Below, in pieces: positions 6,757-10,765 of a stretch of DNA of 10,821 nucleotides. The stretch is from the UHGV virus genome UHGV-1747927. The stretch is one strand, 5' to 3'. How positions within the stretch are numbered: position 1 is the first letter of the stretch; each line of letters opens with the position of its first letter. Under the pieces are notes generated by a model. It did not search any database. It saw only the letters and a program-made list of their open reading frames with translations, and had not been told where the DNA came from. The DNA is from a virus. Position numbers and translations under genes: made by a program.

Positions 6757-7473
<717 letters not shown>

Positions 7474-7504: not shown

Positions 7505-7846
7505 ATGACACAATTTCAACTTGCATTAATCGCTAGAGAAGTTGATGGAGAAGTCATCCATCTTCGCACCAAAGACGGATACATCAATGCCACCGCGATG
7601 TGCAAGTCTGCGGGGAAGCTACTTGCTGACTATACACGACTAAAAACAACACAAGATTTTTTTGATGAATTATCACGCGATATGGGGATTCCCATATCGG
7701 AGTTAATTCAATCATTTAAAGGCGGAAGAGCAGAGAATCAAGGGACTTGGGTTCATCCAGACATCGCAATTAATTTAGCTCAGTGGCTATCTCCAAAATT
7801 TGCAGTGCAAGTATCGAGATGGGTGCGTGAGTGGATGTCAGGTTAA
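7505..7846 (+). CDS. KilA-N domain protein (113 aa) in the rexAB position
   Basis: KilA-N/Bro-N-like motifs (INATAMCKSAGK, GTWVHPDIAINLAQWLSPKFAVQVSRWV). AGGA lies 6 nt upstream of the ATG. It starts 31 nt after the cI stop on the same strand. Confidence 0.7.
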   Translation: MTQFQLALIAREVDGEVIHLRTKDGYINATAMCKSAGKLLADYTRLKTTQDFFDELSRDMGIPISELIQSFKGGRAENQGTWVHPDIAINLAQWLSPKFAVQVSRWVREWMSG

Positions 7847-7885
7847 AGAGCGCCTGCCGAACTCCCTATCCACCTTAAGCGGTAT

Positions 7886-8264
7886 ATGACAAACCGAGGC
7901 AGAGTTCCTCATACGCACTTTTCTATGCTTAATGAACTGACGTTTAACTTGGTTGCGCCACTTGAACAGGCCGGATATACGCTGCCAGAAAAAATGGTCC
8001 CTGATATTTCAGAGGGTAGGGTTTTCTCGCAATGGCTCCGTGACAACCGGGGGGTTGAGCCGAAGACATTCCCAACATATAACCATGAGTACCCAGATGG
8101 CCGGACATTCCCGGTACGTCTATACCCAAACGAATATTGCAGATTTCAAACAATACTTCAACGAAGTGTGGCTGCCTCAGTACGCTCCTAAATATTTTGC
8201 TGAACGAGACCAAAGGGCATTGACGTTGATTGAGAAAATCATGCTACCTGACCTTGATTCCTAA
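7886..8264 (+). pseudogene. Downstream ORF with apparent +1 frameshift (frames 7886-8191 and 7953-8264), in frame with KilA-N across a single TAA
   Basis: The 7886 frame looks protein-like up to about 8130 (...RTFPVRLYPNEY). The +1 frame looks protein-like only from about 8130 (ADFKQYFNEVWLPQYAPKYFAERDQRALTLIEKIMLPDLDS) and ends 8 nt before a terminator. The 7886 frame is the KilA-N frame and only one stop (7844-7846) separates them. Confidence 0.4.
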
Positions 8265-8450: not shown

Positions 8451-8513
8451 AACCATCTGCGGTGATGAATTATCTCTAGCGGTGTTGACATAAATACCAC
8501 TGGCGGTGATACT
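8451..8513 (+). promoter_or_regulatory. pL promoter with OL3-OL2-OL1 operators
   Basis: OL3 is AACCATCTGCGGTGATG (8451-8467), OL2 TATCTCTAGCGGTGTTG (8471-8487), OL1 TACCACTGGCGGTGATA (8495-8511). -35 TTGACA (8485-8490), 17-bp spacer, -10 GATACT (8508-8513). Nearly identical to lambda pL as recalled. Confidence 0.85.
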
Positions 8514-8581
8514 AAACACATCAGCAGGACGCACTACTCACCAGGGCGGTGAATATACAACGATTCAAATATGAATCTACG

Positions 8582-8596
8582 GCGCTGACAAAGCGC
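8582..8596 (+). promoter_or_regulatory. nutL boxB hairpin GCGCU-GACAA-AGCGC
   Basis: A 5-bp GC-rich stem with GACAA pentaloop about 60 nt downstream of the pL start. The same loop occurs in the nutR boxB. It matches the P22 boxB-left sequence as I recall it. No clear boxA was seen upstream. Confidence 0.5.
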
Positions 8597-8724: not shown

Positions 8725-9108
8725 ATGACACGCAGAACTCAGTTCAAAGGCAATTCACGTTCTCGTCGTCGTGAGCGTTTAAAGGCAAAGGCATTAGCTA
8801 ACGGCGTACTGGCCCGCGAAGAAGCAATAAGTTCAGAAGTATTACACCGCCCTACTCTAAGCAGAGCGCAGATTCAGGCTAAAGGTACTCACGAAACGCC
8901 TGAGCGCATAGAAGACGCTAAGCCAATTAAGTTCATGGCACAGGACGTGATCTGGCAACAGAAAGAATACAGACGCAATCTGGAGAGAGCGGCCATTGTG
9001 TACGCGAATGAGTTTGGACATAAGCAACCAGAAACTGGTGTATGTCTTCCAAATGTAGCTCTTTACGCAGCAGGATACCGGAAATCAAAACAACTGACGG
9101 CGAGATGA
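8725..9108 (+). CDS. N: N-like transcription antiterminator N1 (128 aa from the Shine-Dalgarno-supported ATG)
   Basis: First gene after pL and nutL. AGGAGG lies 6 nt upstream of the ATG at 8725. The N-terminal arginine-rich motif (KGNSRSRRRERLKAKALANG) resembles the P22-type ARM as recalled. The track start at 8623 would lie inside the leader stem and lacks a Shine-Dalgarno. Confidence 0.7.
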   Translation: MTRRTQFKGNSRSRRRERLKAKALANGVLAREEAISSEVLHRPTLSRAQIQAKGTHETPERIEDAKPIKFMAQDVIWQQKEYRRNLERAAIVYANEFGHKQPETGVCLPNVALYAAGYRKSKQLTAR

Positions 9109-9158
9109 CTTGTGTTGGTCGCCAGAAAATGAAATTAGGCAGCAAACCACTTATTTGA
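9105..9158 (+). other. 17-codon mini-ORF or fossil encoding a lambda-N-like C-terminus (MTCVGRQKMKLGSKPLI), -1 frame relative to N1
   Basis: Its ATG overlaps the N1 stop as ATGA. The peptide resembles the lambda N C-terminus (..ITCSGRQKIKGKSIPLI) as recalled. It is not in the N1 reading frame. Confidence 0.3.
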
Positions 9159-9166
9159 GGTGAGAT

Positions 9167-9637
9167 ATGACAAAATCATGGAGCGTACCTTTTCCTGAAT
9201 CAGAAACTGAACATGATGGAATGCCTGTTTTCTGGAGATTCCAAGCGACAGTTGAAGAAGATGGAATCAAAATATTCGCACTTCAATATATAGCTTTTCA
9301 TCAGACAGAGCATTATGCATGGTTGGTTCCTGCGCATTGGATTGTTAATTTTAAACCAGCACCAAATCAGTGGTTACAGGAATGGAAACAAAAGAGAAAT
9401 AGATATGCAATTAAGAAAGTAGCAAAAAATGCAGAAAGATCTTTTGCATTCCCAACGAAGAAACTTGCCATTGAGAGTTTATTGCGCCGGAAGAAATACC
9501 ATTTAATGAGAATCAAACAAGATTTGGCTGTTGTATCAACTCTTGTTGATGGGATGAAGAATATTGATACATCAACACCAGATATTGAATATAACTTTGG
9601 ACACAACCAAGAAACAGAAAATTGGGTATTCTACTAG
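9167..9637 (+). CDS. Hypothetical basic protein (156 aa), AT-rich cassette gene 1
   Basis: GAGGTG lies 5 nt upstream of the ATG. The composition is visibly AT-rich relative to the flanks and the C-terminal half is lysine/arginine-rich. No family recognised. Confidence 0.6.
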   Translation: MTKSWSVPFPESETEHDGMPVFWRFQATVEEDGIKIFALQYIAFHQTEHYAWLVPAHWIVNFKPAPNQWLQEWKQKRNRYAIKKVAKNAERSFAFPTKKLAIESLLRRKKYHLMRIKQDLAVVSTLVDGMKNIDTSTPDIEYNFGHNQETENWVFY

Positions 9638-9683
9638 GGCGCATAGCCGACTTTATTTTTGGCATAAACAATATGGGGTAAAA

Positions 9684-10010
9684 ATGAAAGTTTTAATGGT
9701 TTATGAAAATGTTCCAGAGTCGACTGAAATCTATATTTTTGATGCCAATGAAGATGAAGTTAACGATTTGAAATTGTCTCACGGAAATTACACAAATGCT
9801 AATTGTGATGAAAGTATCGAAAAAGCACTATCACGAGTTCTTGTCAGAATCAGTGATCCAGAACATTGTGATGATGATTGGCTTTCTTATTGTGAATCGG
9901 TAAAAACTGATGCAGGAAAATGGAGTAAAAGTAAAGTTGATAACTCAACCCCAATCATTATGAAAGATAGTGATATTGAAATGGTAATAATAACCGGAAT
10001 GATTATGTAG
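9684..10010 (+). CDS. Hypothetical acidic protein (108 aa), AT-rich cassette gene 2
   Basis: ATG at 9684 is preceded by GGGG. The track start at 9564 would overlap the upstream gene. The protein is Asp/Glu-rich and AT-rich. No family recognised. Confidence 0.5.
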   Translation: MKVLMVYENVPESTEIYIFDANEDEVNDLKLSHGNYTNANCDESIEKALSRVLVRISDPEHCDDDWLSYCESVKTDAGKWSKSKVDNSTPIIMKDSDIEMVIITGMIM

Positions 10011-10026
10011 GCTGCGAATAAGCACT

Positions 10027-10054
10027 GTGTATTCATTCCGACGAGTGAATACAC
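10027..10054. repeat. Perfect 9-bp-arm inverted repeat (GTGTATTCA, 10-nt spacer, TGAATACAC) 17 nt after the cassette stop
   Basis: Read directly. No U-tract follows on either strand, so it is not a canonical intrinsic terminator. Confidence 0.4.
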
Positions 10055-10400
10055 GGAGCAATGTCGCTCGTAACTAAACAGGAGCCGACTTGTTCTGATT
10101 ATTGGAAATCTTCTTTGCCATCCGAAATGCGGGAACTGAGTTTAACCAAACAGGAGGTGCCGTAATGGTGCACTAACGCGGTTAGACCGCAGCCGAAAGG
10201 CAATGCAGCAGTAATGATGCTGCCCCGAGTCGCGTAATGGCGAGCAGGTTTAGCAGACCGATGTGAGGGTAAATAAGGGAACATGCTCCGGAAAGGCAGC
10301 GCGAATGCCAGACGCGCACCGGTTATCAGCGGCTAATAAGCGACAGAGACTCAAGGGCATGAGCGCGCTCACTGCGAGAGTGTGAGTCAAAGAGTAGTTG

Positions 10401-10475
10401 GCTTTGGGGTGACGTGAAGTGCAGCTGCACGACGGCAACCGGAAGATAAGCACCCGGCGCGTCACCGCCAAAGTC
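10401..10475 (+). promoter_or_regulatory. Leader stem upstream of N2, analogous to the N1 leader stem
   Basis: GCTTTGGGGTGACG (10401-10414) pairs with CGTCACCGCCAAAGTC (10460-10475). The arms are the same as in the N1 stem except AAT/ATT is replaced by ACG/CGT, which preserves pairing. It is followed by the Shine-Dalgarno GGAGG and the ATG at 10493. Confidence 0.4.
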
Positions 10476-10492
10476 AATCATCGGAGGTCAAC

Positions 10493-10765
10493 ATGACAGT
10501 AGTCATTACTTATCTGGCTGACGATAACGCCAGAAATCGCCGCAGAGCACGCAGACAGGCTCAACGTGAACAGGCAATGCAAGAGCAGCGACTGGCGCGA
10601 AAAATTGCGCTGAAGCTCTCTGGTTGCGTCAGAGCAGATAAAGCAGCATCACTCGGAAGCCTTCGCTGCAAGAAGGCAGATGAATGCAGTGGAAGTATTT
10701 GCCTGCCAAACGTAGCCATTTACGCGGCAGGCTACCGGAAATCAAAACAACTGACAGCGAGGTAA
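10493..10765 (+). CDS. Second N-like protein N2 (90 aa) with a lambda-like arginine-rich motif and the same 21-aa C-terminal tail as N1
   Basis: GGAGG lies 6 nt upstream. The N-terminal ARM (NARNRRRARRQAQREQ) resembles the lambda N ARM (QTRRRERRAEKQAQ) as recalled. The C-terminal CLPNVAIYAAGYRKSKQLTAR is shared with N1. Confidence 0.6.
   Translation: MTVVITYLADDNARNRRRARRQAQREQAMQEQRLARKIALKLSGCVRADKAASLGSLRCKKADECSGSICLPNVAIYAAGYRKSKQLTAR

Follow-up and report, generated by a model that had tools for sequence, protein, structure and literature searches.

What are two AT-rich genes doing between the two N antiterminator genes of a lambda-like prophage, and do they act together? The question is raised by a stretch of 10,821 nucleotides of the virus genome UHGV-1747927 (the whole stretch is called the window here), in which gene 1 (9167-9637, + strand), encoding a protein of 156 amino acids (aa), is followed by gene 2 (9684-10010, + strand), encoding a protein of 108 aa. 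In an earlier note, made from the letters of the window, the two were described as a horizontally acquired cassette of a basic and an acidic protein, possibly a toxin-antitoxin or abortive-infection pair, and the acidic protein was suggested to be an anti-restriction DNA mimic. The cassette is flanked by two N genes within the pL operon of a prophage with lambda immunity, and its genes are uncharacterised cargo of the accessory region of lambdoid phages, a known kind of element. The reading that we consider probable is that they are two separate cargo genes of this hypervariable region, expressed early from pL and serving host takeover or counter-defence.

Two genuine genes with separate distributions

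Both open reading frames (ORFs) were found where they had been described, and their AT-richness was borne out: the GC content is 34.8% in 9167-10010 and 47.9% in the remaining window, the 844-bp stretch of lowest GC in the window begins at 9149 (the lowest value elsewhere is 42.1%), and the GC content at third codon positions is 0.29 in gene 1 and 0.24 in gene 2, against 0.37-0.56 in the other genes of the window. The site between N genes was also correct, both flanking ORFs matching the Pfam family N_peptide at about 1e-15. Good ribosome-binding sites had been claimed for both genes; that of gene 1 is indeed good (GAGGTGA), and that of gene 2 is only moderate (GGGGT). The ratio of nonsynonymous to synonymous substitution rates (dN/dS) against relatives ranges from 0.03 to 0.23 for the two genes, and is 0.08 across 66 substitutions between gene 2 and an 81%-identical copy. 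Because of these ratios, and because both belong to conserved protein families, gene 1 and gene 2 are regarded as genuine coding genes under purifying selection.

The earlier note had recognised neither protein, which does not hold for gene 1: it is a long-sequenced, unnamed ORF, Gp45 of HK97 and L0079 of 933W. The amino-acid identity is 100% to an unannotated ORF of H-19B, 99.4% to L0079 and 98.7% to Gp45, and in all three phages the homologue directly follows the same type of N gene, so that it is the same 156-aa protein in the same place, with no structural difference. Gene 1 matches phrog_1636 over its whole length (E 5.4e-112, residues 1-156 of the 156-position profile), a family to which PHROGs assigns no function, and literature searches on L0079, on the PHROG identifiers and for functional work on HK97 gp45 found nothing. 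It is present in about 600 of the 5,426 complete Escherichia coli genomes searched. The family is confined to Enterobacterales, and 40 columns are invariant in 23 sequences with identities down to 55%. In Brenneria and Pectobacterium prophages, gene 1 stands just before xis-int and not after N, and early gene blocks are also where a Vibrio phage and a Salmonella phage carry distant relatives. Since its location varies in this way, gene 1 is mobile cargo of early operons and not a partner of N.

Gene 2 is much rarer in E. coli (16 of the 5,426 genomes), and its neighbours there differ from those in the window. Upstream is a gene of the Nmad5 family or ral; downstream is a superinfection-exclusion gene, or cIII and kil. 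In two prophages ral is immediately upstream of gene 2, and in a third a superinfection-exclusion gene is immediately downstream, which agrees with the proposal of the earlier note that the slot after N is used for accessory genes. In the E. coli prophage L003 (4384-5007), an Nmad5 gene takes the place of gene 1 immediately ahead of gene 2; a relationship between Nmad5 and gene 1 was considered and rejected (hhalign probability 0.3%). An exhaustive HMMER search gave 56 representatives of the gene 2 family at the 50% identity level, every copy being annotated as hypothetical. More distant relatives, with 28-35% identity, are found in 111 phage records, all of virulent phages: Klebsiella jedunaviruses, pseudo-T-evens of the RB43/RB16 type, and Slopekvirus. 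In RB43, the relative is found between ndd and t, in an early region that is plastic, and a relative on a metagenomic T4-like contig has a similar setting. The corresponding region of T4 holds arn and stp.

A separate observation concerns Serratia marcescens GCA_030185195.2, where two different prophages (L029 and L030), about 47 kb apart on one chromosome, carry identical gene 2 homologues (46% identity to the window copy) between the repressor gene and kil. One of these homologues lies beside an intact 308-aa BstA gene.

These distributions bear directly on the proposed toxin-antitoxin or abortive-infection pair, in which a basic toxin would be matched with an acidic antidote. The idea has some appeal: the genes adjoin on the same strand with 46 nt between them, their products have opposite nominal charges (isoelectric points, pI, of 9.05 and 4.32), and a BstA-like abortive-infection gene lies in the neighbouring region. 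It is extremely unlikely all the same, and where the genes occur already goes most of the way to refuting it. Gene 1 and gene 2 stand side by side in not one of the 5,426 complete E. coli genomes, and their adjacency was seen in one prophage lineage only. Gene 1 occurs without gene 2 in 933W, HK97, H-19B and the roughly 600 E. coli genomes mentioned above, so that it cannot depend on an antidote encoded by gene 2; gene 2, for its part, has other neighbours in prophages and relatives in the 111 virulent phages. No match to a toxin, antitoxin or defence family was found for either protein in Pfam, NCBIfam or PADLOC, and a promoter of the pair's own was not detected, which is a weak negative as it comes from a simple consensus scan. 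The charges themselves fit only in part: gene 2 is acidic as stated (net -12), but gene 1 is mildly basic (net +3) and its basicity is not conserved in its family, whose pI ranges from 6.6 to 9.2 with a median net charge of +2. Charge complementarity and adjacency, in this case, do not signal a toxin-antitoxin pair, and gene 1 and gene 2 are two independent cargo genes, not a two-gene system.

Anatomy and transcription of the accessory slot

The cargo is enclosed by two conserved sequences, here called linker A and linker B. Linker A (9106-9166, + strand) is a conserved boundary after N that also carries the ribosome-binding site of gene 1; it follows N with 89-100% identity in Dewey, 933W, mEp213 and two E. 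coli prophages. Linker B (10014-10123, + strand) is a conserved, structured boundary, which closes the slot whatever the cargo in 933W, HK97, Dewey, CurroJimenez, mEp213 and two prophages. In these phages and prophages the two linkers are kept at 89-100% identity around differing cargo. The folding of linker B is well above expectation (z -4.0) and includes a hairpin of 12 bp at 10027-10054. An intrinsic terminator, annotated as such in HK97, forms its end in HK97, 933W and Dewey; in the window, the switch to the leader of the second N gene falls inside this terminator, so that its T-run is lost. A 'boundary sequence' is annotated in CUS-3 under the match to 10022-10684 of the window, a stretch that includes linker B.

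The origin of linker A deserves separate mention. It is a relic of the 3' end of an N gene of the lambda/21 type (it reads ..TCVGRQKMKLGSKPLI*). In prophage L003, a stretch with 100% identity to it forms the true 3' end of the N gene, which shows that N gene ends serve as recombination joints.

Junction mapping defined a gene 2 module (9646-10014, + strand), a clean insertion of about 369 bp relative to 933W, between L0079 and linker B. The match to 933W jumps from 9645 to 10015, while prophages L003 and L004 match from 9636 and 9651 on, respectively; judged from these borders, the module moves as a unit into other prophages. The statement that the cassette as a whole had been inserted thus needs to be divided: gene 2 is inserted relative to 933W and HK97, whereas gene 1 normally adjoins this type of N in the two phages. 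Gene 1 is the common occupant of the site after this type of N, and gene 2 an extra module placed between gene 1 and linker B. Homologous recombination at sequences such as linkers A and B would swap cargo in and out of the slot. The anatomy of the slot agrees with the boundary-sequence model for mosaic lambdoid genomes (Clark et al., 2001; cited in PMC3029335), and the horizontal acquisition suggested in the earlier note was supported in the sense that these are AT-rich, horizontally mobile accessory genes.

Downstream of linker B lies the leader of the second N gene (10124-10492, + strand), 370 nt of non-coding DNA with a GC content of 52-56%. It is present in about 2,250 of the 5,426 complete E. 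coli genomes with 95-100% identity, mostly unannotated. The query that matched these genomes included part of linker B, and most matches began downstream of it. A scan of the window against Rfam gave no match, the leader included, and the leader showed no significant excess of folding (z -1.6).

Upstream of the cassette there is a single strong promoter on the + strand, at 8485-8513 (TTGACA-17-GATACT), in the OL operator region (about 8470-8520), and from its resemblance to lambda pL we take it to be the pL promoter. In the leader of the first N gene, a hairpin at 8582-8596 (+ strand; GCGCTGACAAAGCGC) is the probable boxB of nutL, presumably identical to boxB of the P22 type; nutL is annotated in the homologous leader of 933W. 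A simple consensus scan found no + strand promoter before gene 1 or gene 2 between pL and gene 2, and no convincing terminator was found between the two N genes. Gene 1 and gene 2 therefore lie on the pL transcript without a detectable promoter or terminator of their own, for which reason they would be silent in the lysogen and expressed on infection or induction as N-dependent delayed-early genes. A weak promoter-like site (9976-10003, + strand; TTGAAA-16-AATGAT, 9 of 12 matches) was noted in the 3' end of gene 2, directed toward linker B and the second N gene; promoter-like sites in the region are no more frequent than in shuffled sequence.

This arrangement allows comparison with phage morons. 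According to the definition associated with Juhala and Hendrix, a moron is said to be AT-rich, to have a promoter and a terminator of its own and to stand as an insertion between conserved genes. Like morons, the two cassette genes are AT-rich, are variably present between conserved sequences and look dispensable, but they differ in that neither a promoter nor a terminator of their own was detected, the only associated terminator being that of linker B, which is lost here. Because they are carried on the pL transcript, they are better classified as accessory-region cargo than as classical morons.

A further likeness is the 'ral' accessory region of lambdoid phages described by Silas et al. (bioRxiv 10.1101/2023.04.06.535777), which has the same slot, the same linker B and small exchangeable cargo. 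Ral alleviates type I restriction, and the accessory-gene screen in that work included ral and orf184 from this region, orf184 being a trigger of the Gop-beta-cII abortive system (bioRxiv 10.1101/2023.04.06.535777). Gene 1 and gene 2 have no sequence similarity to Ral (no PF11058 match). We also considered whether orf184 was one of the two genes, and rejected this: it is mEp213_045 (AFM76385.1; L005, 3501-3824), the last cargo gene before linker B in mEp213.

Properties and possible functions of the two proteins

Gene 2 matches phrog_4658 with an E value of 3.6e-37 (residues 1-108 of the 109-position profile), and PHROGs assigns this family no function. Asp and Glu make up 20% of the protein. 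Its acidity is conserved in the family, with a median pI of 4.33, a median net charge of -12 and a pI below 5 in 30 of 34 members; in the alignment, 11 columns are at least 60% acidic, and the acidic patches are conserved in position at the N-termini of two helices. In addition, a set of polar positions is near-invariant (P11-E12, H33, N38, G78-K79-W80, D/E99, T104-G105). The structure model is a compact alpha/beta domain with a predicted local distance difference test (pLDDT) score of 97, for which no structural neighbour was found among PDB structures; compared with solved structures, the modelled fold is apparently new. Gene 2 had no match in Pfam, NCBIfam or PADLOC, a Pfam scan of all 34 family members was also empty, and gene 1 likewise had no match in these three collections. 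Single-sequence and profile searches of PDB sequences gave nothing for either protein. Confident homology to characterised proteins was thus found for neither, in line with the earlier note.

Transmembrane segments are absent from both proteins; hydropathy over 19 residues reaches at most 0.56 in gene 1 and 1.10 in gene 2, well below the 2.37 of a membrane-ORF control. The charge of gene 1 is laid out in acidic, basic and acidic parts (-5/+13/-5), the +13 falling on residues 61-122, and its structure model is poor (pLDDT 65).

On these grounds, the following roles can be proposed. Early timing would fit functions that aid the phage early, for example in taking over the host or countering its defences, and the two proteins would act singly. 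Gene 2 would be a small, cytoplasmic, acidic protein that binds stoichiometrically to a host protein and blocks it, most likely a DNA-binding or defence protein, acting through its conserved acidic patches and its conserved polar site. Gene 1 would be a soluble protein whose basic central helical region contacts nucleic acid or an acidic partner. A counter-defence role is supported by the company that the genes keep, because their neighbours in the slot are ral, superinfection-exclusion genes and orf184; the characterised cargo of the slot after N (Ral, SieB and orf184) all touches host immunity. More specifically, and only tentatively, phrog_4658 may be an inhibitor, hitherto unrecognised and of a new fold, of a host defence or DNA-binding protein, which lambdoid prophages would have in common with virulent phages of Enterobacterales of the T4-like and Jedunavirus kinds, with gene 1 as a second, independent early effector.

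Several points weigh against assigning such roles. The counter-defence role, which we infer for either protein, is unproven: neither gene is in PADLOC, neither these genes nor recognisable relatives are in the 200-gene library of the accessory screen, and comparison of both protein sequences with the supplements of three anti-defence or accessory-gene papers gave no match. In published work (PMC12502783), the anti-defence module of DefenseFinder was run on phages carrying gene 1 and reported nothing but methyltransferases, Ral and Gam. A small-molecule site could just as well account for the conserved polar residues of gene 2, and a nucleic-acid-binding role of gene 1 would be deduced from the charge layout and nothing else, its model being poor. 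Small early phage proteins are often acidic, and charge by itself is weak evidence. A weak internal promoter active in lysogens, finally, may escape a simple consensus scan.

Alternatives that keep the genes within the conflict between phages and hosts were weighed against these roles. Gene 2 resembles Ocr of T7, ArdA and Arn of T4 in being small and strongly acidic with acidity conserved in the family, and, as far as can be judged from its gene, cytoplasmic and early-expressed. Besides strong acidity and small size, the ral gene directly beside it in two prophages and the RB43 relative between ndd and t would suit an anti-restriction DNA mimic working like these proteins and unrelated to them. 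Such a function is nevertheless unlikely, since the modelled fold is not similar to that of any solved DNA mimic and the conserved His/Asn/Trp/Lys site suggests a pocket instead of a DNA-like ladder of charges, despite the 11 acidic columns; the Asp and Glu content of Ocr is also higher than that of gene 2. The Ocr/ArdA-like fold that the earlier note had raised was not found in the structure search, and gene 2 as an actual relative of Ocr, ArdA or Arn was rejected, there being no sequence or fold homology to a solved mimic. The same polar constellation, set in a compact alpha/beta domain, could instead mark a sponge or small enzyme that binds or degrades a small molecule, such as an immune signalling nucleotide, and the family spans unrelated phage types, as known sponges do. 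This is speculation from residue conservation and very unlikely, as the model matches none of Tad1, Tad2, Acb1, Acb2 or other solved proteins and no nucleotide-binding family was matched.

It could also be that one or both genes are expressed from the prophage and protect the lysogen, by superinfection exclusion or prophage defence like that of sieB or rexAB. Related prophages carry superinfection-exclusion genes in the slot, a gene 2 relative adjoins the intact BstA gene in Serratia, and AT-rich DNA often hides weak promoters. With no + strand promoter ahead of either gene, however, repression of pL by cI should silence both; moreover, the proteins have no transmembrane segment, unlike SieB-type proteins, and no PADLOC match, and strictly virulent phages commonly carry gene 2 relatives, an argument against lysogen protection because no lysogen exists there. 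Taken together, a function of this kind is distinctly unlikely. A different possibility is that the genes take no part in conflict with host immunity and serve the phage's own early programme, in regulation, recombination or replication. Gene 1 and its relatives are always in early, recombination or replication blocks, the basic centre of gene 1 could bind phage DNA or RNA, and the gene is common and well conserved, as its 40 invariant columns illustrate; but the presence of the genes is patchy among otherwise similar lambdoid phages, their position is variable, and their AT-rich composition is typical of dispensable cargo and not of core functions. We consider this, too, improbable, and retain host takeover or counter-defence by two separate cargo genes as the probable reading.

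If the counter-defence roles were true, a phage region that is among the best studied would have yielded two new counter-defence families. HK97 and the Shiga-toxin phages 933W and H-19B carry gene 1, as does about one in nine complete E. coli genomes. Of the two families, that of gene 2 makes the more attractive target, for its breadth and its apparently new fold. Both genes are cheap, well-defined candidates for counter-defence screens.

The N genes and other features of the window

The window comprises the immunity and early region of a lambda-like prophage, with leftward (pL) transcription on the + strand, on which the order is cI, a broken BstA-like gene, OL/pL, the first N gene (N1), gene 1, gene 2, a 482-nt non-coding stretch and the second N gene (N2). 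The cI gene (6760-7473) is lambda-like. N1 (8725-9108, + strand, 127 aa; Pfam N_peptide E 9.8e-16; phrog_271) is an antiterminator of the 933W/H-19B/HK97 type that matches the N protein of 933W, and N2 (10493-10765, + strand, 90 aa; Pfam N_peptide E 1.1e-15) is of the HK620/mEp213_047 type. The last 21 residues of the two proteins are nearly identical (CLPNVA[L/I]YAAGYRKSKQLTAR).

Two N genes also occur in phage mEp213 (L005, 1453-1785 and 2938-3210), which shares with the window the succession of an N gene, small accessory genes, part of linker B, the 370-nt leader and a second N gene, and differs in the first N gene and in the cargo between the N genes, where mEp213_050, _049 and _048 take the place of gene 1 and gene 2. 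N2 and its leader are 98.6% identical to the mEp213 counterpart. Because mEp213 likewise carries small cargo between two N genes, with a leader and N2 so closely related, the double-N layout is a natural and viable mosaic. The complete arrangement was found again in public contigs, at least 24 of them, with two NCBI draft genomes and gut metagenomes among the sources, and is therefore not an assembly artefact.

Just downstream of cI, the window contains the broken BstA-like abortive-infection gene (7505-8264, + strand). A KilA-N ORF (7505-7846) stops at an in-frame TGA, its frame runs on to 8191, and a frameshift leads into the frame of 7953-8264; the fragments match PHROG 6287 and the BstA model of PADLOC. 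When compared with the window by tblastn, a Serratia BstA was too divergent for alignment. As independent public contigs contain identical split gene calls, the break is a pseudogene of the lineage and not a sequencing error.

In the source lineage (L012, 7085-9140), N2 is followed by a 74-aa ORF, an Nmad5-family gene (a putative nucleotide-modification family), a 322-aa coiled-coil ORF rich in Glu, Lys and Ala, and then cIII and kil. At positions 1-2161 of the prophage copies L012, L013 and L016, a P22-type coat protein gene and an HNH gene abut the replication gene O, in the position held by DnaB in the window and in L015; these copies look deleted or rearranged and are probably defective.

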